Shown one piece after another: positions 3,710-23,589 of a DNA stretch of 23,783 nucleotides. The DNA comes from Amaricoccus sp. (GTDB taxonomy: Bacteria > Pseudomonadota > Alphaproteobacteria > Rhodobacterales > Rhodobacteraceae). The DNA is taken from the NCBI RefSeq assembly GCF_017995835.1, contig NZ_JAGOID010000048.1:1-23783 (forward strand), in the 5' to 3' direction. The notes below the pieces were generated by a model. That model did no database searches. It had not been told where the DNA came from and saw only the letters and a list, made by a program, of their open reading frames with translations. Made by a program: the position numbers and the translations under genes. The number at the start of each line of letters is the position of its first letter. Positions within the stretch are counted from its first letter, which is position 1.

Positions 3710-4656
3710 TTGTCCTTCCCTCTCAGTGCGCGCAGGATGCTCGGGAGCAGTCCTTCGCGCATGAAGATCATGCACAGCATCATCACGAGGCCGAGCAGGA
3801 TCTGCTCGTACTCCTGGAAGACGGTCAGCACCTGCGGCAGCGTGGTCAGAATCGCCGCGCCGAAGAAGGCGCCGAGCACCGAGCCAACGCCGCCGAGGAC
3901 CGCCATGGTCACCATCTCGATCGAGTGCATGAAGCCGGCGACTTCCGGGGTGATGAACTTGTTCTGGAGCGCTAGGAGCGAGCCGGCGATTGAGGCGTAG
4001 ACCGCCGAAATCACGAAGGCCTGGAGCTTGAGGCGCGCGACGTCAATGCCAACGGTGCGCGCGGCGATTTCCGAGCCGTGCAGCGCCCGGAGGGCGCGCC
4101 CGGTAGGGCTGTCGTAGAGGTTGAGCGCGATCCAGGCGCCGATAACGAGCGCCAGGCCGGAGAAGAAGTACCAGAACTGCGCGTTCGAAATGTCGATGCC
4201 GACGAACTCGAGCACGTCGTTAAGGCCGAGATCGGGCACCTCGATGCCGTCTGGACCGCGGGTTAGCCAGGCTTCGTTGGCGAGCACCATCGAGACGAGG
4301 ATGCCGAGGCCGAGGGTGGCGACGGCGAGGTAGTAGCCCTTGAGGCGGAGGATCGGGCGGCCGACCGCCCAGGCCAGCGCGCCGGAGATGGCAGCGCCGA
4401 GGATAGCGGCTAGGCCGGGGTGGAGCCCGAGATGGACCGGGGCAAGTGCGCAGGCGTAGCCGCCGATGCCCGCAAAGCCGGCGTGGCCGAGGCTGATCTG
4501 CCCGGCGTAGCCGATGAGGATGACCATGCCGGTCACGGCGAGGCCGTTGACGAAGATCAGCGAGCCGACGCGGTAGTAGAAGTTTGACGGGAAGAAGAAG
4601 GGCGAGGCGATCACGATGATCGCGAGGATTAGGAGCGTGACGCGTTTCGTGGTCAT
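3706..4656 (-). CDS. livM: Branched-chain-amino-acid-type ABC transporter permease (LivM type)
   Basis: Polytopic hydrophobic protein with LivM-like motifs (GQISLGHAGFAGIGGY). ATG at 4656 lies 2 nt after the livH-type stop. The alternative TTG at 4662 used by the ORF track cannot be excluded. Confidence 0.85.
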   Translation of the reverse strand: MTTKRVTLLILAIIVIASPFFFPSNFYYRVGSLIFVNGLAVTGMVILIGYAGQISLGHAGFAGIGGYACALAPVHLGLHPGLAAILGAAISGALAWAVGRPILRLKGYYLAVATLGLGILVSMVLANEAWLTRGPDGIEVPDLGLNDVLEFVGIDISNAQFWYFFSGLALVIGAWIALNLYDSPTGRALRALHGSEIAARTVGIDVARLKLQAFVISAVYASIAGSLLALQNKFITPEVAGFMHSIEMVTMAVLGGVGSVLGAFFGAAILTTLPQVLTVFQEYEQILLGLVMMLCMIFMREGLLPSILRALRGKDK

Positions 4657-4658
4657 GA

Positions 4659-5531
4659 TCAAACTCGGTCCGTCGACTTGCGGCCGAAGATGCCGCTCGG
4701 CATCACGAAGAGGACGATGAGGATCACTACGAAGGCAGCGGCGTCCTTGTAGACCGAGCTCAGGTAGCCGGCGGTCAACGCCTCAATTAAGCCAAGCAGG
4801 ATGCCGCCGACCAGCGCCCCGAGCGGCACGCCCATGCCCCCGAGCATCGCGGCGGCGAAGCCCTTGAGCGCGTAGGCGATGCCGACGCCGTAGCTGATGT
4901 TGGTGATTGGTGTGACAAGCACACCCGCTAGCGCCCCGATGGCCGCAGAGAGCGCGAAGGAGAGCGTCATTACCCAGTTGGTGTTGATGCCGACGAGCTG
5001 CGCCGCCAGGCGGTTGTTGGAGGTCGCGAGGACGGCGCGGCCCGTGAGCGTCTTGGTGAAGAAGGCCCAGAGGCCGACGAAGACCACGATAGCGCCGGCC
5101 AGAACCCAGAGGCTCTGGGGCAGGATGGTGGCGCCGAAGATGCTGATCGGGGTGTCGCCCGAGAAGGCCGGAAAGCGGTGGAGCTGCTTGTCAAAGACGA
5201 GCTGCGCCACGCCTTGGATGAAAATCGAGGCGCCGATGGTGATGATGATGAGCGACACCACCGGTGCGCCGCGGGCGGGCTCGATGGCGAGCTTGTTGAG
5301 GGCGACGCCCATGGCGGCGGTGCCGGCGATGGCGATCAGGGCCGCGAGGGGGATCGGCAGCCCCGCCATGTGGGCGAAGACCGTAATCATGCCCCCGAGC
5401 ATGACGAACTCGCCCTGGGCGAAGTTCACCACGTCCGACGCGTTGTAGATGATGGTGAAACCCAGGGCGACCAGCGCGTAGACCGCGCCGACGGTCACGC
5501 CGGACAGGAGGAATTGCATAAGTTCGGCCAT
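4659..5531 (-). CDS. livH: Branched-chain-amino-acid-type ABC transporter permease (LivH type)
   Basis: LivH-like N-terminus LLSGVTVGAVYALVALGFTIIYN, with multiple transmembrane segments. I preferred the ATG at 5531 (MAELMQF...), which has GGAG 10 nt upstream, over the TTG at 5552. Confidence 0.85.
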   Translation of the reverse strand: MAELMQFLLSGVTVGAVYALVALGFTIIYNASDVVNFAQGEFVMLGGMITVFAHMAGLPIPLAALIAIAGTAAMGVALNKLAIEPARGAPVVSLIIITIGASIFIQGVAQLVFDKQLHRFPAFSGDTPISIFGATILPQSLWVLAGAIVVFVGLWAFFTKTLTGRAVLATSNNRLAAQLVGINTNWVMTLSFALSAAIGALAGVLVTPITNISYGVGIAYALKGFAAAMLGGMGVPLGALVGGILLGLIEALTAGYLSSVYKDAAAFVVILIVLFVMPSGIFGRKSTDRV

Positions 5532-5607
5532 GGGCGTCGAGCTCCGGGGCAAAAGGGCGCGGGAGCAGGGCGGGCGGCGTTGCCCACCTTGCGAATGCGT
5601 CGTGCGG

Positions 5608-6744
5608 CTACGGGACGAGGGTCCATTCGCCGTTCTTGATCTCGAGCATCCGGAACGCCGAGAGGTCGAAGCCCAGGTGGTCCTCCGGTGTCATGGTGAC
5701 GACGCCGGTGGTGCCGGCGAGGCTCGAGGTCGCCTCGATGGCGTCGCGGATGTCGGAGGGCTTGGTGGAGCCGGCACGGGTCAGCGCGTCGACGAGGATG
5801 GCGAAGGCGTCGTGGGCATAGCCGCCGAAGGTCGAGGGCGCCTCGCCGTAGGCGGCGGTGTATTCGGTGACGTAGGCGTCAACGACCGGCTTCTGCGCGT
5901 CGTCGGCGGCGAGGAGGCTGCCGATGAGCAGCGCGGTGCCGGGCAGCCGGACGCCCTCGGCCGCCTCGGGGCCGGCGAGGTCGATGAAGCCCTTCGATGC
6001 GACGCCGTGGCTCTGGTAGAGCGGCAGGCCCACAGCGAGCTGCTGATAGTTGCGAGTGACGATCGACGGCCCCTGGCCAAAGCCCGGGTTCAGCACCGCC
6101 TCGATGCCGGCCGTGTTCTTGATATTAGTGAGCTGCGGCGTCATGTCGGCATCGGTCGGACCATAGCTCTCATCCGCCAGGACCTCGATCCCGTAGTCGC
6201 CGACCACCTCGAGGCACTGCTTGCGCATGGACGCCCCGAAGCCGTCGGTGCCGGAGATCATGCCGATCTTGGTGATGCCGCGCGCCTTCATGTCCTCGAA
6301 GAGCTTCTGGCAGGCCATGCGGTCGGTGTGCGGGGTCTTGAACACCCACTCCTTGACCGGGTCGATGATCTCGATGGCGCCGGCCAGCGAGATGAAGGGG
6401 ATTTCGGCGTCCTCGGCCACCGGGATGATCGACATCGAGGTGCCGGTGGTGGTGCCGCCGATGATCGCCACGACCTCGTCGTCCTCGACGAGGCGGGTAG
6501 CGAAGGTGCGCGCTTTGTTCGGGTCGCCGCCATCGTCGTAGAGCGTCAGCGCGATCTCCTCGCCGTTGATGCCGCCGGCGGCGTTGAGCTTCTCCACCAT
6601 CATCTTGAGGGTCTTGGCTTCCGGGTCGCCGAGGAAGGCGGCGGGTCCGGTTTCCGACACAGTGGCGCCGATCTTAATGTCGGCCTGTGCCGCGGTGGTG
6701 AGGCCGAGCGCGACGAAGCTAGCGAGAGCCGTCAAGGTTTTCAT
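5608..6744 (-). CDS. Periplasmic substrate-binding protein of the Leu/Ile/Val-binding (type I, Peripla_BP_6-like) family; probable aromatic-acid/phenylacetate binder
   Basis: Signal peptide MKTLTALASFVALGLTTAAQA followed by DIKIGATVSETGPAAFLG, typical of LivJ/K-family binding proteins. RBS GGGGAGGAA precedes the ATG at 6744. The ligand assignment is an inference from context only. Confidence 0.85.
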   Translation of the reverse strand: MKTLTALASFVALGLTTAAQADIKIGATVSETGPAAFLGDPEAKTLKMMVEKLNAAGGINGEEIALTLYDDGGDPNKARTFATRLVEDDEVVAIIGGTTTGTSMSIIPVAEDAEIPFISLAGAIEIIDPVKEWVFKTPHTDRMACQKLFEDMKARGITKIGMISGTDGFGASMRKQCLEVVGDYGIEVLADESYGPTDADMTPQLTNIKNTAGIEAVLNPGFGQGPSIVTRNYQQLAVGLPLYQSHGVASKGFIDLAGPEAAEGVRLPGTALLIGSLLAADDAQKPVVDAYVTEYTAAYGEAPSTFGGYAHDAFAILVDALTRAGSTKPSDIRDAIEATSSLAGTTGVVTMTPEDHLGFDLSAFRMLEIKNGEWTLVP

Positions 6745-8436: not shown

Positions 8437-8541
8437 CTGCGTTTCTCCCGATGTTGTTGCGTTTATAATTGACTGACCAGTCGGTTTATGCAACACTTTT
8501 TTTAACGGCTGCAGCGAGCGGTCGCCTTGGGAGGGAAGCCG
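8437..8541. promoter_or_regulatory. Divergent control region between paaN2 and paaG
   Basis: This is the most AT-rich stretch of the window. It contains a perfect TATAAT (8464-8469, + strand), TTGACT (8469-8474), a T7 run (8497-8503) and the palindromic motif at 8468-8489. Transcription start sites are not determinable from sequence. Confidence 0.55.
8468..8489 (+). promoter_or_regulatory. Candidate PaaR (TetR-type) operator, copy 1
   Basis: ATTGACTGACCAGTCGGTTTAT has a GACTG-AC-CAGTC inverted-repeat core. By hand alignment, 17 of 22 positions are identical to the reverse complement of 23518-23539 upstream of paaJ. Confidence 0.5.
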
Positions 8542-9800: not shown

Positions 9801-9838
9801 GCCCGGTTTCGACGGATTTTTTGGGGAGAGAACGCCAG

Positions 9839-11158: not shown

Positions 11159-11257
11159 TTTTGACCGACCCGACGGACGATGAATTGATCCGAGGGGATG
11201 GTCGGCAGCGGCCGTCCCCCACCGTCCGAGACCCGCGAGGGGATTGGAGCCGACGAA

Positions 11258-11857
11258 ATGGCACGGACACGCGCCAGTGACTTCGAGGAGAAGCAGCAGG
11301 GCCTCCTGATGAGCGCGGCGGCGGTCTTTGCCGAGCACGGCATGGAAAAGGCCTCGATGGCGCAGGTCGCCGCCCACTCTGGCGTGTCGAAAGCGCTCCT
11401 CTATCATTACTATCCGAGCAAGGACGCCCTGATCTTTGCCATCATCCACACCCATCTTGTCGAGCTCGAAGCCTCCGTCTCCGTGGCAGCCCAAGTGAGC
11501 CGGCCGCCGGAGGAGCAGCTGCGCGTGCTCGTGGGCGTGGTGCTCGAGAAGTACCGTGGAGCCGACGACGCCCACAGGGTGCAACTGATCGGTGGCGCGG
11601 CGCTCGCTTACGAGCAGCGCCGCGAGATCCGGGCGGTGGAGCGGCAGATCGTCGGACATTTCTCGGACGTGCTGCGTCGGGTGCATCCCGAACTCGACCG
11701 GCCGGATCGGCCGTTGCTGATGCCGGTCACGATGACGGTCTTCGGGGTGATGAACTCGGTTTACCTGTGGTTTCGCGAAGAGGGTCCGATCACGCGAAGT
11801 GACTACGCTCAAGTAGCGACGACCTTGATCCTTGAAGGCATCAAGGCTGTGCGCTGA
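11258..11857 (+). CDS. paaR: TetR/AcrR-family transcriptional regulator, probable PaaR
   Basis: N-terminal TetR helix-turn-helix (AAVFAEHGMEKASMAQVAAHSGVSKALLYHYYPSKDAL). ATG at 11258 has GGAG 9 nt upstream. The PaaR assignment comes from position in the paa cluster and the absence of a GntR-type paaX. Confidence 0.75.
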   Translation: MARTRASDFEEKQQGLLMSAAAVFAEHGMEKASMAQVAAHSGVSKALLYHYYPSKDALIFAIIHTHLVELEASVSVAAQVSRPPEEQLRVLVGVVLEKYRGADDAHRVQLIGGAALAYEQRREIRAVERQIVGHFSDVLRRVHPELDRPDRPLLMPVTMTVFGVMNSVYLWFREEGPITRSDYAQVATTLILEGIKAVR

Positions 11858-11909
11858 GGGAATGGTTGCCCCCGGTAGAGGCGGTGCGTCCGGCGGGGAG
11901 GGGGCGGCA

Positions 11910-11933
11910 ATCGGGGCGGATCGCCCCCCCGAT
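11910..11933. terminator. GC-rich imperfect hairpin between convergent paaR and paaY (possible bidirectional terminator)
   Basis: ATCGGGGCG-gat-CGCCCCCCCGAT is a stem with a three-C bulge. It lies 3 nt from the paaY stop and 53 nt from the paaR stop. Neither strand has a U-tract. Confidence 0.25.
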
Positions 11934-11936
11934 CGG

Positions 11937-12548
11937 TCAGTCGCCGAGCTTCAGGCGCTCGGCAATCAGCGGGTCGTAGTCCGGGGCACGAACCTGGCGA
12001 CGCCCTGGCTCGGGGACGGCGAGCGGCTCGGCCGGCGCGAGCTTGCCGGGTGCCTCGGCAGCGAGGCGCTGATACACGCCGGTGCCGCGGGTCTTCCACT
12101 CGATCTCCTGACGGGTGAGCTCGCGGACGACCTTGGCCGGAGAGCCGACGGCAAGGCTGCGAGGCGGGATCTTGCGGCCGGCCGGGACGAAGGCCATGGC
12201 CCCGACGATTGAATCCTCGCCGACCTCGGCCTCATCCATGATGACGGCGTTCATCCCGACCATGGCGTTTCGCCCGATGCGGCAGCCGTGCAGGACAGCG
12301 CCGTGGCCGATGTGGCCGCAGGGCTCGACGACGACGCCGAGGTTCGGGAAGGTGTGGACGACGCAGGTCTCCTGCACGTTGGCGCCATGGCCGATCTCGA
12401 TGCGGCCGAAGTCGCCGCGCAGTACGCACTGTGGCCCGATGTAGACGCCGGCGGCGATGATGACGTCGCCAATGACCGTAGCGTCGGGATGGACGAAGGC
12501 CTCGGGATCGACGACCGGAATGATGCCGTCCCATGACCAGATGCTCAT
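11937..12548 (-). CDS. paaY: PaaY, hexapeptide-repeat (gamma-carbonic-anhydrase-like) protein with thioesterase role in the paa pathway
   Basis: Colinear with E. coli PaaY (VVDPEAFVHPDATVIGDVII, LRGDFGRIEIGHGANVQE, GHIGHGAVLHGCRIGRNAMVGMNAVIMD, VGSPAKVVRELT). The start forms an ATGA overlap with the upstream thioesterase stop. Confidence 0.9.
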   Translation of the reverse strand: MSIWSWDGIIPVVDPEAFVHPDATVIGDVIIAAGVYIGPQCVLRGDFGRIEIGHGANVQETCVVHTFPNLGVVVEPCGHIGHGAVLHGCRIGRNAMVGMNAVIMDEAEVGEDSIVGAMAFVPAGRKIPPRSLAVGSPAKVVRELTRQEIEWKTRGTGVYQRLAAEAPGKLAPAEPLAVPEPGRRQVRAPDYDPLIAERLKLGD

Positions 12549-13024
12549 TGCCCGCCCTCCGTTGCGCGTTCCATTTCAGTGGTGATCTCCCGGCGCAGCC
12601 GGCGGCGGAGTTCGGCGGCGCGGTTGCGCCGGGCCTCGGCCGAGGTCTCGATGCGAAGCTCCGGCACCTCGGCGGGGCGGCTCGAGTCGTCGATGGCGAC
12701 CATAGTGAAGTAGCAGGAGTTAGTGTGGCGGACGGTGCCGGTGCGGATGTTCTCGGCCTCGACCCGGATGCCGACCTCCATCGACGTGCGGCCGGCGTGA
12801 TTGACCGCGGCGCGGAAGGTAACGAGCTCGCCGACGTTGATCGGTTCTTTGAAGGTCACCTGGTCAACCGAGAGGGTGACGGCGTAGCGGCCTGAGTAGC
12901 GCGAGGCTAGCGAGAAGGCGACTCGGTCGAGGAGGTTGAGGAGCGCGCCGCCATGGACCTTGCCGGAAAAGTTGGCCATGTCGGGGGTCATCAGGACAGT
13001 CATCTCCAGGCGGCGGTGATCCAT
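12545..13024 (-). CDS. Acyl-CoA thioesterase, hotdog fold (YciA/acyl-CoA hydrolase type)
   Basis: LMTPDMANFSGKVHGGALLNLLDRVAF and SCYFTMVAID are typical of the acyl-CoA hydrolase family. I preferred the ATG at 13024, with strong RBS GGAGAAGGAAG, over the GTG at 13066. Confidence 0.85.
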   Translation of the reverse strand: MDHRRLEMTVLMTPDMANFSGKVHGGALLNLLDRVAFSLASRYSGRYAVTLSVDQVTFKEPINVGELVTFRAAVNHAGRTSMEVGIRVEAENIRTGTVRHTNSCYFTMVAIDDSSRPAEVPELRIETSAEARRNRAAELRRRLRREITTEMERATEGGQ

Positions 13025-13077
13025 CTTCCTTCTCCGTGACAGGCAAGGGACAGGAGCGTCCGCCACTCGGGCGTCGG

Positions 13078-13101
13078 CCGCCGGGCGCGGACGCCCGGCG
13101 G
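13078..13101 (-). terminator. Perfect 10-bp GC stem-loop immediately downstream of the acylase gene
   Basis: CCGCCGGGCG-cgga-CGCCCGGCGG lies 5 nt after the pac stop (13107). No U-tract follows, so it may be an attenuator or mRNA-stabilising hairpin rather than a full terminator. Confidence 0.35.
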
Positions 13102-13106
13102 AAGCA

Positions 13107-15479
13107 TCATTCGATGGTAAAGGCCATTCGCCCCACCGCGGATTTCTCGACGTCGTCGCGGTAGAAGGCCTGCGGGCGGCAGCCGAAGTCGGCGTAGAGC
13201 TGCAACTGGTCCTGATAGTGCGGCGACTTCGTGCCGTCGGGGGCGATGAAGCCGCTCTGGCCCGGGGGCGTGACGGCGCAGAAAGTCACCTTGCCGTCGC
13301 GGAAGCGGACCATGTTGTTCTCGGTGCCGCGGTTCATGGCGGTGCCGACGGCGAGCCCTTCGTCCGCGGTGGTCTGCGGGATGCCGAGGTAGTTCTTCGT
13401 GTCGAAGACGTGCTGGTCGATCGGTGCGAGCCAGGCCGTGACGTTGTCGCTGCCGTACTGTTCGGACAGGGCCACGCGGGCCTTATCGAGCGCCGTCAGG
13501 ACCACCGTGTCGGGATCTTCGCCATTGAAGAAGTCGTAGGCCTGCGGGACGCCTGCGTCCTTGCCGAGAAGCGCGTTGTTCAGGAGAGCCGAGGGCAGCG
13601 CGATCCGGATTTGCATGACCTTCGACGGGATCGACGGCGCATCGTCGAGGAGCACGTCGGCGACCATGACGTCCATCCAGGTGCGCAGGATCGCGACCGC
13701 CGGTGAGGTCGCCTTGCCGTCGGCGTCGCGGATCTGGCGGCTGTCCCAGTCGGCGAGCGCCGCGAGCATGGGCTGGCGCGGGTCATCCGCCGGTAGGCCC
13801 GCGCTCGCGGCGAGGATGCGCGGCACGAAATAGCGTGCGTTGACGTCGACGAAACTCGTCTCGGGCAGGATGTTCCAGACCTCCTCGGGGGAGAAGCGGT
13901 CCTTGGCTTCGATGCGCGACATGATCTCCACGACGCGGTCGGCCGAGCCCCATGGGCTGCCCTCGACGGTGGAGACGGTGCCCTTGCCTGAGCGGTTGTT
14001 CCAGTTGGCGATCCAGCCCTGCTCAGGGTTCAGTGTCTTGGGGACGTCGTCGAAGGGGCGGATTCCCTGCCAGTCCATGCTGCCGTCGCCCTTGGCCGGC
14101 AGGCGAAGATCTTGGCTGGCCTGCCGCACCGGCAGGTAGCCGGGCGAGACGTAGCCGATGTTGCCGTCCTTGTCGGCGTAGTACCAGTTGATCGTGGTCG
14201 CGACGTCCTTCGCCGCGTCGAGCCACTGGTCGTAGTCCTGTGCCTGCGTCGAGCGGATCCAGGCCATGAGCGTGGAAATCTCGTAGCCCTCCCAGGTGCG
14301 GTGGAAGGCGAAGGCGCGATCATGCTCGGCGTCGAAGACAGGGACCACGCCATAGTCGGTCCCCCAGATCTCGGCGGTCACATCCTCGGCGCCCTTGACC
14401 TTGATCGTCTCCTCGCGGCGGCGCATGTCGGTCCAGCCGTCGCCGCGGCGATACTGGTGTGGATTCTGCGGGTTGAGCTCGAGCGCGACGTAGTCGTTGA
14501 CGTCGAGAGGGCCGGCGGTGGCGCCCCAGGCGATCGCGCCGTTGGTTCCGAACAGGACGTTTGGCACGGCGAAGGGGGTGTTGCCGGTGAGGTCGAACCC
14601 GGCGCCGTGCAGGCCGATCGAGAACACGTAAGCCGGGTTGAAGTTACCGAACTGCGGGCCGTTGACGAGGATGGTGCTGCCGTCGACGGTCTTTTCCGGC
14701 CCGAGGATCCAGATGTTGCTGGCACGCGGGCGGTCGTCCTCGCCGCTCTCCATGCCGGGGACGTCGGCGAGGCCGGCGAAGCGGGTGGCGCCGAGCGGCG
14801 CGGCCTCGGCCTTCTTCTGGTATGGCGCGCCGGCGGGAACGGTGGTGGGGGCGAGCGGGTCCTCGATCCAGTAGATCTGGTCGAAGAGCTGCTTGCCGAC
14901 GGTCTCGCCGTGCTGCTCGACAAGGGCGTCGAGCACTTTGGCGTTGTTGAGTTCGTTGGAGAAGTAGGAGAAGCGGCCGGCCATCGTGCCGACGTAGATC
15001 ATCGCGACGTCGAAGTCGGACCAGTCCGCGGGCTCGAAGCCAAAGTCGGTGAACTCCTTCGGCAAGAGGTTTGCCTTGTCCGCCATCACCTCGGAGAGGC
15101 GCTTATTGAAGCCGGCCGCGTAGCCTTGGAGGATTGCGCGCTGCTCGGGGGGCAACGCGTCGATCTGGGTGCGGATCTTCGCCTGGTCGAAATTGGTGCG
15201 GGTCTGGGTGTCGTAGGCGACCTGGTCGGGGCCGAGCACCTCGGCGGTGGTGCCGAGGACCGAGCGGCGGGCCATCTCCATCTGGAAGAGGCGGTCCTCG
15301 GCGACTGCGTAGCCGAAGCCGGCGTAGAGGCCGTAGACATCGTTGGCATAGACCTGCGGGATGCCCCACTCGTCGCGCAGGATCGTCACGTCGGAGGCGG
15401 CACTGGCGGCGATGGGGGAGAGGGCGAGCAGGGCAGGCAGGAGCAGCCGGCCGAGGGACCGGGTCATCGTGGCGGGCAT
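13107..15479 (-). CDS. pac: Penicillin G acylase (penicillin amidase, Ntn-hydrolase, peptidase S45) precursor
   Basis: Colinear with E. coli PGA. Shared segments include ILRDEWGIPQVYAND, GYAVAEDRLFQMEMARRS, FDVAMIYVGTMAGRF and the beta-subunit N-terminal nucleophile SNIWILG (Ser254, codon 14718-14720). Further shared segments are VNGPQFGNFNPAY, GLHGAGFDLTGNTPFA, TINWYYADKDGNIGY, WIANWNN, RGTENNM, PPGQSGFIAPDG and HYQDQL. The N-terminal signal peptide is MPATMTRSLGRLLLPALLALSPIAASA. RBS AGGAGGAG precedes the ATG at 15479. Confidence 0.95.
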   Translation of the reverse strand: MPATMTRSLGRLLLPALLALSPIAASAASDVTILRDEWGIPQVYANDVYGLYAGFGYAVAEDRLFQMEMARRSVLGTTAEVLGPDQVAYDTQTRTNFDQAKIRTQIDALPPEQRAILQGYAAGFNKRLSEVMADKANLLPKEFTDFGFEPADWSDFDVAMIYVGTMAGRFSYFSNELNNAKVLDALVEQHGETVGKQLFDQIYWIEDPLAPTTVPAGAPYQKKAEAAPLGATRFAGLADVPGMESGEDDRPRASNIWILGPEKTVDGSTILVNGPQFGNFNPAYVFSIGLHGAGFDLTGNTPFAVPNVLFGTNGAIAWGATAGPLDVNDYVALELNPQNPHQYRRGDGWTDMRRREETIKVKGAEDVTAEIWGTDYGVVPVFDAEHDRAFAFHRTWEGYEISTLMAWIRSTQAQDYDQWLDAAKDVATTINWYYADKDGNIGYVSPGYLPVRQASQDLRLPAKGDGSMDWQGIRPFDDVPKTLNPEQGWIANWNNRSGKGTVSTVEGSPWGSADRVVEIMSRIEAKDRFSPEEVWNILPETSFVDVNARYFVPRILAASAGLPADDPRQPMLAALADWDSRQIRDADGKATSPAVAILRTWMDVMVADVLLDDAPSIPSKVMQIRIALPSALLNNALLGKDAGVPQAYDFFNGEDPDTVVLTALDKARVALSEQYGSDNVTAWLAPIDQHVFDTKNYLGIPQTTADEGLAVGTAMNRGTENNMVRFRDGKVTFCAVTPPGQSGFIAPDGTKSPHYQDQLQLYADFGCRPQAFYRDDVEKSAVGRMAFTIE

Positions 15480-15512
15480 GGGGTCTCCTCCTAGTTGTTG
15501 GTGGCGCCGGCC

Positions 15513-17582
15513 TCAGGCCGCGGGCGACCAAGTCTTCGCCACCATGGTCAGCACGTCGTACTGGGCGACGAGCGCGCCGTCCTGCTTGGTCACCTGGCAG
15601 CCCCAGCGGACCTCGCCGTGCTCGGCACCGGCGCGCGGGTTGATCTCCTTGCAGGTCAGGCGCACGCCGAGGGTGTCGCCCGGGTAGACTGGCGTGAGGA
15701 AGCGGAGGTTGTCGACGCCGTAGTTGGCGAGGACCGGGCCCGGATCCGGATCGACGAAGAGGCCGGCGGCGAAGGAGACGATGAGGTAGCCGTGGGCGAC
15801 GCGGCCGTCGAAGAACGGGTTCGCCTTGGCCGCCGCCTCGTCCATGTGGGCGTAGAAGGTGTCGCCGGTGAACTCCGCAAAATGCTCGATGTCCTCCAGC
15901 GTCACCGTGCGGGTGGCGGTGACGAGCTGGTCGCCGACCCTCAGCTCCGCCAGCGACTTGCGGAACGGGTGGGTGCCGTCCGCCCGGGTGTCGGCGCCCT
16001 CGATCCAGCGGCCGGTGACCGCCGAGAGCAGGCGGGGGGCACCCTGGACCGCGGTGCGCTGCATATAGTGATTGACGCCGCGGATGCCGCCCAGCTCCTC
16101 GCCGCCGCCGGCGCGGCCGGGGCCGCCGTGGACGAGCACCGGCAGCGGCGAGCCATGGCCGGTGGAGGTCTTGGCGCTCAGGCGGTTGCCGATCAGCACC
16201 CGGCCGTGGAAGGGGGCGAGGCCGAGGACGACCTCCTCCGCGACGCCCTTGTCGTCGGTGAACACCGAGGCGACGAGCGAGCCCTTGCCGAGCCTGGCGA
16301 GCGCGATGGCCTCGCCGACATCGTCGTAGGGCATCACCGTCGAGACCGGGCCGAAGGCCTCGACGTCATGGATGGCGGTCTTGGCCAGCGGGTTGTCGGC
16401 GTAGAGGACGACCGGGTTGAGGAAGGCGCCCTTCTCGGCGTCGCCCGAAGCGATCCGCACCTCGTCGGGGTTGCCGGCGACGATCTCGGCCTCGGCGCGC
16501 AGCTCGCGGATGCGGTCGCGGACCTCGCGGCGCTGGTCGAGGCTGGCGAGCGCGCCCATGCGCGTCGCCTCGTTCGACGGATCGCCGAGAACGGTCTTGG
16601 CGAGGCGGTCGCCGAGCGCGGCGACGAGCGCGTCGGTGAAGGCCCGCGGCGCGATCACCCGGCGGATGGCGGTGCACTTCTGCCCCGCCTTCACCGTCAT
16701 CTCGCGGGCGACCTCCTTGACGAAAAGGTCGAACTCCGGCGTGCCCGGGCCGGCGTCGGGCCCGAGGATCGCGGCGTTGAGGCTGTCGGCCTCCATGGTG
16801 AAGCGGGTGGAGTTCTCGACGATCGCCGCGCCGCTGCGCAGCTTGCGCCCCGTCCAGGCCGAGCCGGTGAAGGTGACGACGTCCTGCCCCGTCACATGGT
16901 CGAGCAGGTCGCCGGTCGAGCCGGCGATGAGCTGGATCGCCCCTTCGGGCAGGATGCCCGACTCGACGATGCGGCGGACCACGAGCTCGGTCAGGTAGGC
17001 GGTCTGGCTCGCCGGCTTCACGATCGAGGGCACGCCGGCGATGAAGGTCGGCGCCACCTTCTCCAGCATCCCCCACACCGGGAAGTTGAATGCGTTGATG
17101 TGGATCGCGACGCCGGTCAGCGGCGTCAGGACGTGCTGGGCCGAGAAGCTCGCGTCCTTCGACAGCAGCTCCACCTCGCCGTCGGTGAGGACGCGGGTGT
17201 TCGGCAGCTCGCGGCGCGCCTTCGAGGCGTAGGAGAGCACGGTGCCGGCGCCGCCCTCGATGTCGATCCAACCGTCGGCGCGGGTGGCGCCGGTGGCGAA
17301 GTTCTCGGCGTAGAACTCCTCCTTGTTGGCCATCAGGAACTGGCCAAGCGCCTTCAGCATTGCGGCGCGGTCGTGGAAGGAGAGCGCGCGCAGCTTCGGC
17401 CCGACCACGTCGCGCCCCCAGGTGAGGGCCCCGGCGAAGTCGACGCCGGAGCTGTCGATGCGGGCGACGGGGGCGCCGGTGGCGGCGTCGAGCAGGGTCT
17501 GGCCCGGGCCGTTGCCCTTGACCCATTCGCCGCCCACGTAGCTTTCGAGGGTACGGGGCTTGGTGGTGACGTCGACGGTCAT
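15513..17582 (-). CDS. paaZ: Bifunctional oxepin-CoA hydrolase / 3-oxo-5,6-dehydrosuberyl-CoA semialdehyde dehydrogenase
   Basis: N-terminal aldehyde dehydrogenase with catalytic Glu (MEADSLNAA) and Cys (GQKCTAIRR). C-terminal MaoC hotdog domain (TGDTFYAHMD...VAHGYL...NLRFLTPVYPGDTL), colinear with E. coli PaaZ. Confidence 0.95.
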   Translation of the reverse strand: MTVDVTTKPRTLESYVGGEWVKGNGPGQTLLDAATGAPVARIDSSGVDFAGALTWGRDVVGPKLRALSFHDRAAMLKALGQFLMANKEEFYAENFATGATRADGWIDIEGGAGTVLSYASKARRELPNTRVLTDGEVELLSKDASFSAQHVLTPLTGVAIHINAFNFPVWGMLEKVAPTFIAGVPSIVKPASQTAYLTELVVRRIVESGILPEGAIQLIAGSTGDLLDHVTGQDVVTFTGSAWTGRKLRSGAAIVENSTRFTMEADSLNAAILGPDAGPGTPEFDLFVKEVAREMTVKAGQKCTAIRRVIAPRAFTDALVAALGDRLAKTVLGDPSNEATRMGALASLDQRREVRDRIRELRAEAEIVAGNPDEVRIASGDAEKGAFLNPVVLYADNPLAKTAIHDVEAFGPVSTVMPYDDVGEAIALARLGKGSLVASVFTDDKGVAEEVVLGLAPFHGRVLIGNRLSAKTSTGHGSPLPVLVHGGPGRAGGGEELGGIRGVNHYMQRTAVQGAPRLLSAVTGRWIEGADTRADGTHPFRKSLAELRVGDQLVTATRTVTLEDIEHFAEFTGDTFYAHMDEAAAKANPFFDGRVAHGYLIVSFAAGLFVDPDPGPVLANYGVDNLRFLTPVYPGDTLGVRLTCKEINPRAGAEHGEVRWGCQVTKQDGALVAQYDVLTMVAKTWSPAA

Positions 17583-17592
17583 GGTCCTGTCC

Positions 17593-18369
17593 TCAGGCGA
17601 GGCCGAGCGGCGCCAGCGTCGCGCGGACCGAAGCGGTCCAGTCGGCGAGCAGCGCCTCGTTCGGGCGGTGGCGGAGGCCGAAGCGCTTCTGCGTCTCGAA
17701 CCGGGCGGAGTTCATCGTGCCGAAGCTGTCGGCGACCTTCGGCTGCCAGTAGGCGATGGCGGCCTTGGCGGCGGCGCGCCCCTCCTCGGTCGCGGTGATG
17801 TCGGTGAGGCCGGTGACGCCGAGGTCGGTGTGGCGTTTCTCGCGCGGGGCGATGGCGCGGAACACGTCGGCGAGCGGGGCGTAGGAAACCCTCGCGAGCT
17901 CCTCCAGCGTCACCGCCGCGGCGAGCCCCTGCAGGACGTTCAGCACCACGGCGTCGACCCAGCCCTCGATCGGATAGTGGAACACCGCGAGGCGCATGTC
18001 GGCGCCATGGCGGGCCTGGCCGAGTGCCGCGTCGCGCGGCAGGCGGTCGGCCCAGGGATGCTGGGTCGCGTAGCGGCCCTCGTCGGCGCCGAAGTCGCCC
18101 ATCAGGTCGAGGACACGGCCGGCGTGGTCGGCCTTCTCCAGCGTGATCCGGCAGGCGGCGATGCGCGCGGTGATGCCCGCCGCGTCGTTGATGGTGTCGG
18201 CGAAGCCGGCCGAGGCGGCGAGCTCGCTGTCGACGAAGCTCGCCATCAGCCGCAAGAGCTCGCCGCGGTAGCGGGCGGGCACGTTGGCCGGGGAGGTAAG
18301 CTGGCCGCCTTGGGCGAGGTAGTCCTCGATCGGCATGGTCGCGGCGGTGGCGTCGGTGTCTTCGGTCAT
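17593..18369 (-). CDS. Additional PaaA/PaaC-family (ferritin-like, phenylacetic acid catabolic) protein, function unknown
   Basis: 258 aa from the ATG at 18369 (RBS GAGGGAGGG). The ORF-track start at 18867 runs in another frame through paaE. The protein has ungapped similarity to this window's PaaA across the ligand helices: YRGELLRLMASFVDSELAA, LEKADHAGRVLDL, FHYPIEGWVDAVVLNVLQG and SYAPLADVFRAIAPREKRH. Confidence 0.75.
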   Translation of the reverse strand: MTEDTDATAATMPIEDYLAQGGQLTSPANVPARYRGELLRLMASFVDSELAASAGFADTINDAAGITARIAACRITLEKADHAGRVLDLMGDFGADEGRYATQHPWADRLPRDAALGQARHGADMRLAVFHYPIEGWVDAVVLNVLQGLAAAVTLEELARVSYAPLADVFRAIAPREKRHTDLGVTGLTDITATEEGRAAAKAAIAYWQPKVADSFGTMNSARFETQKRFGLRHRPNEALLADWTASVRATLAPLGLA

Positions 18370-18380
18370 GGTTCCCTCCC

Positions 18381-19454
18381 TCACTGGTCGTAGCTGACGA
18401 CGACCTTGTCGCTCAGCGGGAAGCACTGGCAGGTGAGCACGTAACCCTGCTTCACCTCGTAGTCCTCGAGCGCGTGGTTGATGGCCATCTCGGTCTCGCC
18501 CTCCAGCACCCTGGCGCGGCAGGTCGAGCACACCCCGGCCTTGCAGGCGTAGGGCGCGTCGATGTTCGCCTCCAGCGCCGCGTCGAGCAGGCTCTGGCCC
18601 GCCTTCGGCATGCGGAAGCTCCGCGTCGCGCCGTCGAGCGTCACCGTCGCCTCGGTGGAGTTGGAGGTCGAGACCTCGGCCGAGACCACCCGCTGCTTGG
18701 TCCGCCCCGGCTGGCCCGAGGCGAAGAGCTCGAACTTGATCTGCGCGTCGGCGAGCCCGTGCTCCTTCAGCGCCCCGGCGATCGCCAGCATCATCGGCTC
18801 GGGGCCGCAGATGAAGGCGGTGTTGACCGTCGGCAGGTCGATCCAGGTGCGGAACAGCGCCGCGCACTTCTCCGCGTCCACCCGCCCGGTGAAGAGCTCG
18901 ATGTCCTGCGCCTCCGTTTCGAGGACGTGGACGATCGACAGCCGTCCGAGGTAGCGGTTCTTCAGGTCCTCGAGGTCCTCGCGGAACATGATCGAGCTGA
19001 TCTGCCGGTTGGCGTAGACGAGGGTGAAGGTCGAGCCCGGCTCGGCGGCGAGCACCGTCTTGATGATCGAGAGCAGCGGCGTGATCCCCGACCCGCCGGC
19101 GAAGCCGAGGTAGTTCTTCGGCGCGTCCGGCTCGATCGGCGTGAAGAACCGCCCCATCGGCGGCATCGCCTCGAGCACCGCCCCCGCCTTCAGCTCCTCG
19201 TTGGCCCAGGTCGAGAAGGCGCCGCCGTCGACGCGCTTGATGCCGACCTGCAGGTGACCCTCGCCCTTGCCGGCGCAGATCGAGTAGCTGCGGCGCAGCT
19301 CGTCGTCCTCGAACTTGCGGCGAAAGGTCAGGTACTGGCCTTGGGTGAAGTCGAAGAGCGCGGCGTCCTCGTCGCGCGGCTTCAGGGTGACGACGACGGC
19401 GTCCCGCGTCTCCTTGCGGACGTCGACGACATCGAGGGAATGGAAGCGTGCCAT
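18381..19454 (-). CDS. paaE: Phenylacetyl-CoA epoxidase reductase subunit (FNR-like with C-terminal plant-type 2Fe-2S)
   Basis: FAD-binding RSYSIC, NAD-binding GFAGGSGITPL, and the C-terminal cluster motif CKAGVCSTC...C. Colinear with E. coli PaaE. Confidence 0.95.
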   Translation of the reverse strand: MARFHSLDVVDVRKETRDAVVVTLKPRDEDAALFDFTQGQYLTFRRKFEDDELRRSYSICAGKGEGHLQVGIKRVDGGAFSTWANEELKAGAVLEAMPPMGRFFTPIEPDAPKNYLGFAGGSGITPLLSIIKTVLAAEPGSTFTLVYANRQISSIMFREDLEDLKNRYLGRLSIVHVLETEAQDIELFTGRVDAEKCAALFRTWIDLPTVNTAFICGPEPMMLAIAGALKEHGLADAQIKFELFASGQPGRTKQRVVSAEVSTSNSTEATVTLDGATRSFRMPKAGQSLLDAALEANIDAPYACKAGVCSTCRARVLEGETEMAINHALEDYEVKQGYVLTCQCFPLSDKVVVSYDQ

Positions 19455-19475
19455 TTCAGTTGTCCTTGCGTCCGC

Positions 19476-19997
19476 TCAGATGCACTTGAAGTAGTCGAAG
19501 GGCTCGAGGCAGTCGTCGCAGCGATAGCTCGCCTTGCACGGCGTCGAGCCGAACTGGCTCACCTTGGTCGTATGGGCCGAGCCGCAGCGCGGACAGGCGA
19601 CGGTCAAGTTGCCGCCCGTCATCCGGTTCACCCGGCCGATCAGCCGCCCGTCGGCGGCGGTGCCGTCGATCGGCGGCGCGATGCCATAGGCCCGGAGCTT
19701 CTCCCGGCCGCCCTCGCTGATCCAGTCGGTGGTCCAGGGCGGCGAGATCTGGCGCTTCAGCTTGAGGTTCGAGACGCCCTTCTCGCGAAGCGCCTTCTCG
19801 ATGTCGAGGTTGATGATCGCCGTCGCCGGGCAGCCGGAATAGGTCGGCGTCACGGTGACGACGAGGGTGTCGCCGTCCCAGGCGACATCGCGGACGATGC
19901 CGAGGTCGGTCAGCGAGATCACCGGAATTTCCGGGTCGGGGACATGGCTCAGCCAGTCCCAGACCTCGGCGGTGCTGGGGTGGGTCGCAGTCGTCAT
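19476..19997 (-). CDS. paaD: Phenylacetyl-CoA epoxidase accessory subunit PaaD
   Basis: 173 aa from the ATG at 19997. VPDPEIPVISLTDLGIVR, TPTYSGCPAT and the C-terminal CPRCGS...FGSTPCKASYRCDDCLEPFDYFKCI match E. coli PaaD. The 403-aa ORF-track version extends in another frame through paaC. Confidence 0.9.
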   Translation of the reverse strand: MTTATHPSTAEVWDWLSHVPDPEIPVISLTDLGIVRDVAWDGDTLVVTVTPTYSGCPATAIINLDIEKALREKGVSNLKLKRQISPPWTTDWISEGGREKLRAYGIAPPIDGTAADGRLIGRVNRMTGGNLTVACPRCGSAHTTKVSQFGSTPCKASYRCDDCLEPFDYFKCI

Positions 19998-20008
19998 CGG
20001 CCTTCGTC

Positions 20009-20860
20009 CTACCAGGAGGCGCCGGGATAGGCGCGCTGCAGGAACTGCATCTCGGCGAGGATATAGCCGAGGTGCTCGGTGTGGACGCCGCGCTTGCCGC
20101 CCTTGTGGGCGAAGCCCGACTCCGGGATTGCCAGGGTCGCCTCGGTCAGCACGTCGCGAACGGTCGCGTCCCAAGCGGCCTCGAGGTCGCGCGGGTTCGG
20201 CGCGATCCCGGCCGCTGCGACCGCGACGTCCTTCTCGTCGGCGAGGAACATCTCGCCGGTATAGGCCCAGAGCGCGTCGAGCGCGTCCTGCATCCGCCGG
20301 CGGCTCTCCCCGGTCCCGTCCCCGAGCCGGATCACCAGGTCCGACGACCGCTCGAGGTGGTAGGCGACCTCCTTCGCGGCCTTTGCCGCGATCTCGGCGA
20401 CGCGCGGATCGGACGACCCTTGGAGCGCCTTCAGCAGCTCGAAGTGCCAGGCGTCGAACAGGAACTGCCGCATCAGCGTGTGGCCGAAGTCGCCGTTCGG
20501 GCGCTCCACCAGCAAGAGGTTGCGGAAGTCCCAGGCGTCGCGCAGGTAGGCGAGATCGTCGGCCGACCGGCCCTTGCCCTCGACCTCGCCGGCGAGGCCG
20601 AGCCACATCTGGGTCTGGCCGATCAGGTCGAGCGCGACGTTGGCAAGCGCGATGTCCTCCTCCAGCGCCGGCGAGTGGCCGCACCATTCGGAGACCCGGT
20701 GGCCGAGGATCAGCGTCGCGTCGCCGAGGCGGAGCAGCACCTCGAAGAAGGCGTCCTGCCCCGCATCCGGGGTCGGGATCTCGGTCGCGTGGCTGTGGGC
20801 CGCCGCTTCGCGCGCGAGCTCCGCCACGTCGGGGGTGTTCATGTCCGGGAGCGAGGGCAT
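20009..20860 (-). CDS. paaC: Phenylacetyl-CoA epoxidase structural subunit PaaC
   Basis: LLRLGDATLILGHRVSEWCGHSPALEEDIALANVALDLIGQ and the C-terminal GKRGVHTEHLGYILAEMQFLQRAYPG match E. coli PaaC. It lacks ExxH ligands, as expected for PaaC. ATG at 20860 lies 1 nt after the paaB stop. The alternative ATG at 20842 is possible. Confidence 0.9.
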   Translation of the reverse strand: MPSLPDMNTPDVAELAREAAAHSHATEIPTPDAGQDAFFEVLLRLGDATLILGHRVSEWCGHSPALEEDIALANVALDLIGQTQMWLGLAGEVEGKGRSADDLAYLRDAWDFRNLLLVERPNGDFGHTLMRQFLFDAWHFELLKALQGSSDPRVAEIAAKAAKEVAYHLERSSDLVIRLGDGTGESRRRMQDALDALWAYTGEMFLADEKDVAVAAAGIAPNPRDLEAAWDATVRDVLTEATLAIPESGFAHKGGKRGVHTEHLGYILAEMQFLQRAYPGASW

Positions 20861-20861
20861 C

Positions 20862-21146
20862 TTACATGTGCCCCACTTCGTCGGGGATGTCGTAGAAGGT
20901 CGGGTGGCGATAGACCTTGGAGTTGGCCGGCTCGAACAGCGGACCCTTGTCCGAGGGGCTCGACGCGGTGATTGCGGCCGAGGGCACCACCCAGATCGAC
21001 ACGCCCTCGTTGCGGCGGGTGTAGACGTCGCGGGCGTTGTTGATCGCCATCTCGGCGTCCGGCGCGTGCAGGCTGCCGACGTGGCGATGGTTCAGCCCGT
21101 GCTGGCCCCGGATGAAAACTTCCCAGAGCGGCCATTCCTTGGACAT
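20862..21146 (-). CDS. paaB: Phenylacetyl-CoA epoxidase subunit PaaB
   Basis: 94 aa from the ATG at 21146 (RBS GGGAGGAAG). WPLWEVFIRGQHGLNHRHVGSLHAPD and SKVYRHPTFYDIPDEVGHM match E. coli PaaB. The ORF-track start at 21236 lies in the AT-rich spacer. Confidence 0.95.
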   Translation of the reverse strand: MSKEWPLWEVFIRGQHGLNHRHVGSLHAPDAEMAINNARDVYTRRNEGVSIWVVPSAAITASSPSDKGPLFEPANSKVYRHPTFYDIPDEVGHM

Positions 21147-21273
21147 TCGCTTCCTCCCTTGGTTCCACGGCGCGGAGGCCCGGTTAACCTTGGTTGACGT
21201 TCGGTGAATCTGATCGACGTTATCTTTGACTATCAACGACTTGACCAGCGTCGCGCGCGCGAGACTGCAGGCC

Positions 21274-22266
21274 TCACTCGGCGGCGACAGGCGCCCGGCG
21301 TGCGGCGGCCTTCTCGGCGTGGGCGACGAGCCCGTCGCGGAACCAGGCGCCGTCGTCCCAGGCCTTCACCCGGGCGCCGAGCCGGTCCTTGTTGCACGGG
21401 CCGTTGCCGGCGATGACGTCGAAGAACTCCGACCAGTCGGGCTCGGAGAAGTCGTGGCCGCCCTTCTCCTCGTTCCACTTCAGCTCGGGATCGGGGACGG
21501 TCAGCCCCAGGTACTTGGCCTGCGGCACGGTCTGGTCGACGAACTTCTGGCGGAGCTCGTCGTTGGTGTTCATCTTGATCTTCCACGCCATCGACTGGGC
21601 GGAATGCACCGAGTCCTTGTCCGACGGCCCGAACATCATCAGCGACGGATACCACAGCCGGTTCAGCGCATCCTGCGCCATGCGCTTCTGCTCGGGCGTG
21701 CCTGCGGCCATCTTCATCATGATGGCGTAGCCTTGGCGCTGGTGGAACGATTCCTCCTTGCAGATGCGGATCATCGCCCGGCTGTACGGCCCGAACGAGG
21801 TCCGCTGCAGCGGCACCTGGTTCATGATCGCCGCCCCGTCGACCAGCCAGCCGACCGCGCCCATGTCGGCCCAGGTCAGCGTCGGATAGTTGAAGATCGA
21901 CGAGTACTTCATCTTGCCCTTGTGGAGTAGTTCCATCAGCTCGTCGCGGCTCACCCCGAGCGTCTCGGCGGCGCAGTAGAGATAGAGGCCGTGCCCCGCC
22001 TCGTCCTGCACCTTGGCGAGCAGGATCGCCTTGCGCTCCAGCGTCGGGGCACGGGAGATCCAGTTGCCCTCGGGCAGCTGGCCGACGATCTCGGAGTGGG
22101 CGTGCTGGCCGATCTGGCGGATCAGCGTCTTGCGATAGCCCTCGGGCATCCACTCCTTGGGCTCGATCTTCTCGTTCCGGTCGATGCGCTCCTGGAAGGC
22201 GCGCTCCGCGGGCGTCATGTCCTCCGGCTTCTTCAGACCCTCGGTCGAGACGAGCTGGGCGTACAT
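21274..22266 (-). CDS. paaA: Phenylacetyl-CoA 1,2-epoxidase catalytic subunit PaaA
   Basis: 330 aa from the ATG at 22266 (RBS GAGGAGGAAG), 14 nt after the paaJ stop. [43 protein letters not shown] and [11 protein letters not shown] match E. coli PaaA, with all di-iron ligand motifs present. Confidence 0.95.
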
Positions 22267-22280
22267 TCTTTGCTTCCTCC

Positions 22281-23486
<1,206 letters not shown>

Positions 23487-23517
23487 ATCGTCCTCCCCGA
23501 ATCTCCATTGCCATCAC

Positions 23518-23539
23518 ATTAGCCGACCGGCCGGTCAAT
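23518..23539 (-). promoter_or_regulatory. Candidate PaaR (TetR-type) operator, copy 2, upstream of paaJ
   Basis: The minus strand reads ATTGACCGGCCGGTCGGCTAAT. It contains the perfect 12-bp palindrome GACCGGCCGGTC and ends 31 nt upstream of the paaJ ATG. It matches 8468-8489 at 17 of 22 positions, in the same orientation relative to the downstream operon. Confidence 0.5.
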
Positions 23540-23589
23540 GTATAGCGAAATGTGCCCTTTGCCGAGAAAGAGATGATCTTGGTGGGGCC

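Follow-up and report, generated by a model that had tools for sequence, protein, structure and literature searches.

Penicillin G acylase (PGA) is a much-used industrial enzyme whose physiological role has never been settled experimentally, the best prior evidence being the PaaX control described in Escherichia coli W, where PaaX represses the pac gene, phenylacetyl-CoA relieves this repression, and the enzyme is seen as scavenging phenylacetyl esters and amides (PMC9493321). Already established are the idea that PGA supplies the phenylacetyl-CoA catabolon and its control in E. coli by a repressor that senses phenylacetyl-CoA. In the put and paa system of soil isolates (Crofts et al. 2018, as presented in PMC11446756), a separate put operon codes for a beta-lactamase, an importer of the major facilitator superfamily (MFS) and two amidases, and is induced by penicillin or penicilloate, not by phenylacetate. 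In Burkholderia cenocepacia, the PaaR operator ACCGACCGGTCGGT is an inverted repeat between the -35 and -10 elements of the paaA promoter, its mutation abolishes PaaR-dependent repression, and the published regulon scan reported only paa clusters, with no acylase member (PMC2770484). Here we describe a paa catabolic island with 68% GC, from an Amaricoccus-like alphaproteobacterium, contained in a stretch of 23,783 nucleotides (contig NZ_JAGOID010000048.1; the whole stretch is hereafter called the window), in which pac is located among the paa genes. We consider it probable that this pac gene codes for a periplasmic, self-processing enzyme of the PGA clade with a phenylacetyl pocket, that it is an internal gene of a PaaR-controlled paa operon, and that its product is a scavenger of phenylacetyl conjugates.

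The pac gene (13107..15479, minus strand) is an open reading frame with an ATG start that codes for a 790-amino-acid precursor of a PGA-type N-terminal nucleophile (Ntn) hydrolase. The preliminary description of this DNA, which did not say that pac is on the minus strand, had placed a full-length PGA homologue 33 nucleotides after paaZ, on the same strand and behind a strong ribosome-binding site, and the junction agrees with this: paaZ ends with TGA at 15515-15513, the pac ATG occupies 15479-15477, and the spacer between them (15480-15512) has exactly 33 nucleotides, and the ribosome-binding site AGGAGGAG (15485..15492, minus strand) lies within it, 5 nucleotides before the pac ATG. The minus-strand order is paaJ, paaA, paaB, paaC, paaD, paaE, an extra PaaA/PaaC-like gene, paaZ, pac, a thioesterase gene and paaY. 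Most gaps in this operon have 40 nucleotides or less, the largest being that of 82 nucleotides between pac and the thioesterase gene. The operon-like placement proposed earlier is borne out not only by strand and spacing: a terminator scan of the coding strand from paaZ to paaY gave no terminator-like site, a consensus scan for sigma-70-like promoters over 11100-23783 gave none, and pac has no PaaR box of its own. We infer that pac is laid out as an internal gene of a long paaJ-to-paaY transcription unit, with which it would be co-transcribed.

A 16-nucleotide motif, TTGACYGRCCRGTCGG, with a core matching the B. cenocepacia operator, was found by motif search at three sites in the window, against 0.22 expected. 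One is the PaaR-box operator TTGACCGGCCGGTCGG of the paaJ promoter (23523..23538, minus strand), 37 nucleotides upstream of the paaJ ATG; the second, TTGACTGACCAGTCGG (8469..8484, plus strand), lies in the divergent paaN/paaG intergenic region; and the third is a weaker PaaR-box-like site with two mismatches (11161..11176, plus strand), between paaK and a TetR-family gene, whose position upstream of the latter points to possible autoregulation. The paaJ and paaN/paaG boxes are conserved in the Amaricoccus loci L001 and L003, and no PaaR box was found near pac in the window or in these two loci. Since there is a box at paaJ and none near pac, the simplest reading, by analogy with Burkholderia, is that pac is expressed from a PaaR-controlled paaJ promoter, the box of which is predicted to control the entire operon, paaJ...pac...paaY.

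Where pac stands alone, the box is found at the gene itself. In the alphaproteobacterial clade this holds for each of the 12 stand-alone pac genes (L002, L082, L084, L085, L089, L005, L006, L007, L008, L009, L060 and L072), which have a PaaR box 66-121 nucleotides upstream of the start codon. Their promoter architecture, ATTGACCGACCGnnyGGTTAAT, is essentially the sequence of the paaJ promoter. PaaR boxes were also identified before the stand-alone pac of Pandoraea morbifera (14/14 match), of Pandoraea ASV26, and of Cupriavidus, Caballeronia and Variovorax robiniae. The background density is 0.12 sites per kb, and the count overstates independence, as many of these upstream regions are homologous. 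Within the alphaproteobacterial clade the pattern is consistent, embedded copies being box-free and stand-alone copies boxed. Given that the operon promoter is boxed and that stand-alone copies have their own box, pac seems to be a member of the PaaR/phenylacetate regulon, as an operon gene or by way of its own promoter, with PaaR binding and induction being presumed from the Burkholderia system.

In the Paracoccus and Ensifer loci L008, L009, L060 and L072 (~9860-13400), a GntR-type PaaX gene is located between pac and the paa operon, and TetR-type PaaR-like boxes are present upstream of pac as well as of paaJ; the locus may be under regulators of both types.

The proximity of pac to paa genes is not particular to the window. 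Among the 80 best pac loci from GTDB representative genomes, at least 18 were paa-linked (10 kb or less from at least two paa genes), with at least six distinct insertion junctions (Z|pac|Y, pac|paaX|J, K|pac|A, I|pac|K, K|pac|J and pac|K). The order is paaZ-pac-(thioesterase gene)-paaY in Amaricoccus, pac-paaX-paaJ in Paracoccus and Ensifer, where the intervening gene codes for PaaX, paaK-pac-paaA in Variovorax and related metagenome-assembled genomes (MAGs), paaI-pac-paaK in Herbaspirillum, paaK-pac-paaJ in Collimonas, paaK-pac in Paraburkholderia and pac-paaK in Woeseiaceae, with a looser pac-paa linkage in Zoogloea, Pseudomaricurvus and Woeseia. In a neighbour-joining tree, the paa-linked loci are distributed over several separate clades, mixed with unlinked members, and the enterobacterial and Achromobacter PGAs of the tree set are not paa-linked. 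Because of this repeated recruitment into paa clusters and of the PaaR boxes at stand-alone copies, a functional link of pac to phenylacetate catabolism is very likely. The alternative of a passenger gene, present in the operon by chance and tolerated there with no metabolic tie to phenylacetate, could be argued from the frequent changes of pac location within Amaricoccus, from the non-monophyly of the embedded copies and from the IS630 transposase fragment flanking the island (see below); we regard it as very improbable, considering the independent co-localisation of pac and paa genes in at least six lineages, the PaaR boxes before stand-alone copies, the PaaX control of pac in E. coli, and a dN/dS of ~0.2 relative to the Amaricoccus orthologues, which indicates that pac is under purifying selection.

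The match of the pac product to PF01804 (Penicil_amidase; E 9.5e-136) spans profile positions 1-675 of 675. The closest solved structures are those of Alcaligenes faecalis PGA (beta chain, E 2e-141), Providencia rettgeri PGA (1e-134) and the E. coli and Kluyvera enzymes (~1e-125 to 1e-127), the alpha region matching PGA alpha chains with E ~1e-59; D-succinylase (4e-45) and the cephalosporin acylases (~1e-15) are distant. A comparison with acyl-homoserine lactone (AHL) acylases had been proposed earlier as a check on the assignment, and it places the protein with the PGAs (1e-124 to 2e-141, against 1e-9 for PvdQ); its sole NCBIfam match is to the PvdQ equivalog, at 57 bits for a cut-off of 950 and over the N-terminal 130 residues. 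Judging from these matches, the pac product belongs to the PGA clade of Ntn hydrolases. A quorum-quenching role, in which the acylase would act mainly on acyl- or aryl-homoserine lactones (e.g., the phenylacetyl derivative) and catabolism of the acid would be a by-product, has to be weighed here, since AHL degradation has been reported for the PGA of Kluyvera (cited in PMC5474475), the phenylacetyl pocket would accept phenylacetyl-homoserine lactone, and in locus L086 a LuxR-type autoinducer-binding gene comes right after pac. However, true AHL acylases are remote from the window enzyme, whose pocket is of the compact aromatic PGA type and not deep and aliphatic, and the LuxR gene follows pac in one contig only, which makes this role improbable.

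We mapped the residues by alignment to an E. coli PGA precursor from a RefSeq genome. The four motifs recognised in the preliminary description are all found in the translation: GTMAGRF at residues 164-170 (Met166, Arg169 and Phe170, corresponding to E. coli alphaM142, alphaR145 and alphaF146), SNIW at 254-257 (Ser254 being the nucleophile betaSer1), PQFG at 275-278 and ANWNN at 491-495 (Asn494, betaN241). The catalytic/oxyanion set is retained (betaS1, betaQ23, betaA69, betaN241, betaR263 and alphaR145, i.e. Ser254, Gln276, Ala322, Asn494, Arg515 and Arg169), as is the phenylacetyl pocket (alphaM142, alphaF146, betaP22, betaF24, betaY31, betaP49, betaF57, betaW154 and betaI177), with identical pocket positions at Met166, Phe170, Phe277, Phe310, Trp407 and Ile430 of the window enzyme; these six correspond to alphaM142, alphaF146, betaF24, betaF57, betaW154 and betaI177, which we take to be the pocket residues of the E. 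coli structures.

Inspection of the translation and of the alignment with the E. coli precursor led to the prediction of a Sec-type signal peptide at residues 1-28, MPATMTRSLGRLLLPALLALSPIAASAA (15396..15479, minus strand), with a positive N-region, a Leu/Ala-rich core, a probable cleavage site after ASA and no twin-arginine motif; the mature alpha start of E. coli PGA aligns at its predicted end. The alpha-subunit region and a short spacer peptide follow at residues 29-253 (14721..15395, minus strand), as aligned to PGA alpha chains, and contain Met166, Arg169, Phe170 and Glu176; the spacer would span approximately residues 234-253, according to a putative alpha/spacer boundary, and has ~20 amino acids versus 54 in E. 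coli. The beta-subunit, residues 254-790 (13110..14720, minus strand), starts at Ser254 and contains Gln276, Phe277, Phe310, Ala322, Trp407, Ile430, Asn494, Arg515 and Cys734/Cys767. The pac product would therefore, from these features, be exported to the periplasm and self-processed. Lipobox-like signal peptides (e.g., LAGC, LVGC, LSAC) are found in many of the PGA homologues of Variovorax, Acinetobacter and Woeseia-like MAGs (e.g., L018, L016, L050, L052, L067 and L069), which suggests that they may be anchored as lipoproteins, unlike the window enzyme and the classical PGAs.

The leaving-group side of the active site diverges from the classical PGAs, with the replacements betaF256S, betaS386Q and betaN388R and a loop ~14 residues shorter. 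This bears on the possibility that the island is a self-contained antibiotic-eating module dedicated to penicillin catabolism, with phenylacetate being obtained from benzylpenicillin or benzylpenicilloic acid. The nearest solved relatives are indeed PGAs used on penicillin G, soil isolates consume penicillin via beta-lactamase, amidase and paa, E. coli W was engineered likewise with bla and pga (both according to PMC11446756), phenylacetate is an intermediate of penicillin G degradation by a sludge Paracoccus (PMC8554860), and in Paracoccus pac adjoins the paa operon. Nevertheless, the route of beta-lactamase, amidase and paa, to which the locus had been related in the preliminary description, was not recovered: all 22 genes of the window were assigned and they include neither a beta-lactamase nor an MFS importer, no beta-lactamase lies beside the PaaR-boxed pac of Pandoraea or Cupriavidus in the loci checked, and the diverging residues are precisely those of the beta-lactam side. 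In addition, a repressor box of the phenylacetyl-CoA type suggests a general phenylacetate-yielding role, penicillin being one of many substrates. We consider a dedicated penicillin module unlikely; penicillin G or penicilloate may be among the substrates, and nothing in the window singles them out. N-phenylacetyl amino acids are good PGA substrates, and in sewage or rhizosphere habitats they are at least as plausible as penicillin.

The favoured reading, that of a scavenger of phenylacetyl conjugates, can be formulated as a sequence of steps. The paaJ operon promoter, with its operator for the TetR-type PaaR, would be expected to open upon accumulation of phenylacetyl-CoA. The enzyme would cleave phenylacetyl amides or esters outside the cytoplasm, the candidate substrates being N-phenylacetyl amino acids, phenylacetamide-type compounds, and benzylpenicillin or its penicilloate. 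The freed phenylacetate would be imported, probably via the adjacent Liv-type ABC system, and converted by PaaK to phenylacetyl-CoA, which would then be degraded by the remainder of the island. A scavenging front end of this kind is in keeping with the conservation of the pocket, the periplasmic location predicted for the enzyme, the PaaR logic and the Liv-type importer encoded in the vicinity. A broader and more speculative proposal, which we put forward tentatively and regard as somewhat doubtful, is that the whole PGA family is a conserved front end of phenylacetate catabolism, with phenylacetyl conjugates and not penicillin as natural substrates, and that regulon membership evolved repeatedly, in which case there would be three routes into the regulon: PaaX control, stand-alone PaaR-box promoters and operon insertion. 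Candidate substrates would then be urinary phenylacetylglutamine and phenylacetylglycine in sewage (Amaricoccus being a sludge genus), plant auxin conjugates of phenylacetic acid with amino acids in the rhizosphere (Variovorax, Herbaspirillum, Collimonas), and aryl-homoserine-lactone signals.

Several observations weigh against the scavenger reading, or against parts of it. The association is facultative: in 5 of the 11 Amaricoccus-clade loci (L002, L082, L084, L085 and L089, with orthologues 73-84% identical) pac is located elsewhere, in each case behind a PaaR-box promoter of its own. No pac was contained in any of 80 paaZ-anchored metagenome loci, with flanks of up to 5 kb, in a scan whose best PaaZ match was 79% identical, that is, with no match of Amaricoccus level, and in which the ancestral junction, paaZ-thioesterase-paaY or paaZ-paaY, was seen. 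The assignment of the TetR-family gene as PaaR, and of its box, is drawn by analogy with Burkholderia, from context and from the boxes themselves. The leaving-group residues differ from those of the characterised PGAs, and data on the E. coli enzyme are thus no guide to the range of substrates. In the calcium site, alphaE152 (Glu176), betaD73 (Asp326) and betaD76 (Asp329) are retained, but betaD252 is Thr in the window enzyme; the positions of the E. coli backbone ligands, beta75 and beta205, are occupied by Asn and Leu. Finally, some of the transcripts could end at a strong hairpin that follows pac, which would affect the expression of the thioesterase gene and paaY, not that of pac. This GC-rich hairpin (13078..13101, minus strand), an inverted repeat right after the pac stop codon, has a perfect 10-bp stem (CCGCCGGGCG / CGCCCGGCGG), a 4-nucleotide loop and no U-tract; the 73-nucleotide stretch between pac and the thioesterase gene that includes it folds at -36 kcal/mol. 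It is also present in L001, L086 and L087, was not called as a terminator, and is possibly an intra-operon element for RNA stability or partial attenuation.

The best genomic matches to pac are from Amaricoccus MAGs and Amaricoccus macauensis (80-85% identity), and pac occupies the slot after paaZ in six loci: the window, L001, L003, L086, L087 and L088. In pac-less alphaproteobacterial relatives (PaaZ 74-77% identical), paaZ is followed after a few nucleotides by the thioesterase gene and paaY (L092, L095) or by paaY alone (L094, L097). Since these relatives have paaZ-thioesterase-paaY, the comparison indicates that the thioesterase-paaY pair is ancestral and that only pac was added in Amaricoccus, by insertion between paaZ and the thioesterase gene. 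It is synteny, and not GC content, that reveals the insertion. A lower GC content of pac had been noted before and the numbers are right (0.670, versus 0.713 for paaZ and 0.709 for paaC), yet the separate acquisition tentatively read from it was not sustained: the island genes have a mean of 0.681 (standard deviation 0.028), and GC at third codon positions (GC3) is 0.916 in pac, equal to the island mean, although below the eight upstream operon genes (0.935-0.975) and ~0.04 lower than in paaJ-paaZ. The codon-usage distance of pac (z 2.2) is lower than those of paaJ (7.3), fadB (8.3) and tetR (6.1). A foreign origin of pac based on composition was rejected, its GC being within the island spread, its GC3 at the mean and its codon usage ordinary.

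The history of pac in the genus seems not to be that of a single clean insertion, given that, in a bootstrapped neighbour-joining tree, the stand-alone pac of L085 is nested with the window group (100%) and L003 and L088 are separate (96%). A single origin of the embedded copies was not borne out, as L085 is placed among them with 100% bootstrap. Non-monophyly of the embedded pac implies that the gene was inserted repeatedly at the same paaZ|thioesterase junction, that it moved out of the operon, or that there are paralogues outside the sample. The surroundings of the slot vary as well: L001 has no thioesterase gene and pac is directly followed by paaY (L001 12364-12425), and in the metagenomic locus L086 (8501-9977) a SnoaL-like gene and the opposite-strand LuxR-type autoinducer-binding gene (PF03472, E 2.4e-26) lie between pac and the thioesterase gene.

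In L002 (2544-9610) and L082 (2237-7603), pac, 81-82% identical to that of the window, comes after a nonribosomal peptide synthetase (NRPS) module, a type II thioesterase, FecCD/ABC genes and a phosphopantetheinyl transferase, a layout that recalls PvdQ in pyoverdine loci, though pac has its own PaaR box there. This neighbourhood is what could be invoked for a PvdQ-like function, in which the enzyme would act on an acylated NRPS product in the maturation of a siderophore or lipopeptide; such a function is hardly credible, as the pac products of L002 and L082 have the same phenylacetyl-type pocket residues, the genes have the PaaR box just mentioned, the window has no NRPS genes, and NRPS adjacency is limited to one sublineage. 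The AHL-acylase, passenger-gene and PvdQ-like readings of pac are all poorly supported.

The remaining genes of the window complete the island. The unit that contains pac starts with paaJ (23486-22281, minus strand), and its part upstream of paaZ, from paaJ to the extra PaaA/PaaC-like gene (17593..23486, minus strand), has the same order in L001, L003 and L086-L088; paaE is at 19454-18381 (minus strand), assigned, like paaJ, from the open reading frame and Pfam/NCBIfam matches. The extra gene between paaE and paaZ (17593-18372, minus strand, 259 amino acids) matches PF05138 with E 1.7e-13, far under the NCBIfam PaaA cut-off, and its position is kept in Amaricoccus, Paracoccus, Ensifer and metagenomic relatives. 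PaaZ (15513..17582, minus strand) is the fused aldehyde dehydrogenase/MaoC hydratase (TIGR02278, 1002 bits for a cut-off of 563; Pfam Aldedh and MaoC). A stand-alone paaN (6784-8439, minus strand; TIGR02288, 757 bits) is also present, so that both types of ring-opening aldehyde dehydrogenase are found in the island, in apparent redundancy. The thioesterase gene and paaY, whose presence downstream of pac had been described correctly, are located at 12545..13024 and 11937..12548 (minus strand), respectively, with a 4-nucleotide overlap of the thioesterase stop codon and the paaY start. The first codes for a hotdog thioesterase (4HBT, YciA-like acyl-CoA thioesterase; PF03061, E 6.7e-19), for which the longest open reading frame extends to 13066 and the ATG at 13024 was chosen from the orthologues in the pac-less L092 and L095; the second, the final gene of the operon, has TIGR02287 (PaaY) as its best NCBIfam match, with 260 bits, below the equivalog cut-off of 320.

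On the plus strand (8536-11857) are paaG, paaI, paaK and the TetR-family gene (11258..11857), a predicted PaaR with Pfam domains TetR_N and TetR_C_24, which ends the paaG-paaI-paaK unit, is convergent with paaY, and has a conserved position in L001, L003, L086 and L087. The minus strand from 8439 to 308 contains paaN, livKHMGF and a fadB-like fusion gene. The importer of livK-H-M-G-F type (2242..6744, minus strand; open reading frames and an NCBIfam match to a Liv-type binding protein) lies downstream of paaN, in accordance with the Liv-type importer reported earlier elsewhere in the island, and is probably the uptake system for phenylacetate released in the periplasm; Liv genes are also contained in the paa clusters of Variovorax and Zoogloea. 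At the other end, an insertion sequence borders the island: an IS630-family transposase gene, of which the final 41 codons are in the window (23663-23783, minus strand; 90-93% identical to IS630 transposases of rhizobial plasmids), ends ~125 nucleotides upstream of the paaJ PaaR box.

Among characterised enzymes, the best solved match is A. faecalis PGA (PDB 3K3W / 3ML0), with 43% identity in the beta chain and the same catalytic and phenylacetyl-pocket residues. The two enzymes also share the differences betaV56L, betaS67A and betaF71P (betaL56, betaA67 and betaP71), and Cys734/Cys767 align with A. faecalis betaC492/betaC525, which we take to form a stabilising disulfide. The window enzyme differs from it in betaD252T, betaY256S, betaS386Q and betaN388R, in ~14 missing residues of the leaving-group-side loop and in a shorter spacer peptide. 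The PGA of E. coli W and Kluyvera is of the same family (41-42% identity), an acylase tied to the phenylacetyl-CoA catabolon via a repressor. The E. coli enzyme is, we assume, exported by the twin-arginine pathway, and the window signal peptide has no twin-arginine motif.

In the literature searched, we found no description of recurrent pac insertion in paa operons or of PaaR-type boxes at stand-alone pac genes, prior mention being possible, and pac inside paa clusters is absent from the 2026 survey of paa cluster architecture (PMC13186573), the 2009 cluster-assembly paper and the Variovorax genome comparison. The presence of pac in or beside the paa operon in several unrelated groups, and of the operon's repressor site at stand-alone copies, constitutes independent genomic evidence for the scavenger role, a hypothesis that is directly testable in the culturable A. 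macauensis DSM 101730 (locus L003), Paracoccus denitrificans DSM 413 and Variovorax spp. Diverged PGAs whose leaving-group sites are altered could also be drawn from these loci, with possible interest for biocatalysis.

The window resembles the put and paa system, as it is presented in PMC11446756, in that an amidase frees phenylacetate, which paa consumes; it has none of the put genes (beta-lactamase, MFS importer and the two amidases), and for its acylase a response to phenylacetyl-CoA is predicted, unlike for the put operon. With the PaaR regulon of B. cenocepacia it shares the operator core ACCGACCGGTCGGT, adjoining a TTGAC -35-like element in paa promoters. In E. coli, pac stands alone near the hpa cluster under the control of a GntR-type PaaX, whereas the pac of the window is an internal operon gene under a TetR-type PaaR box; the novelty is in the gene arrangement, not in a new type of system.

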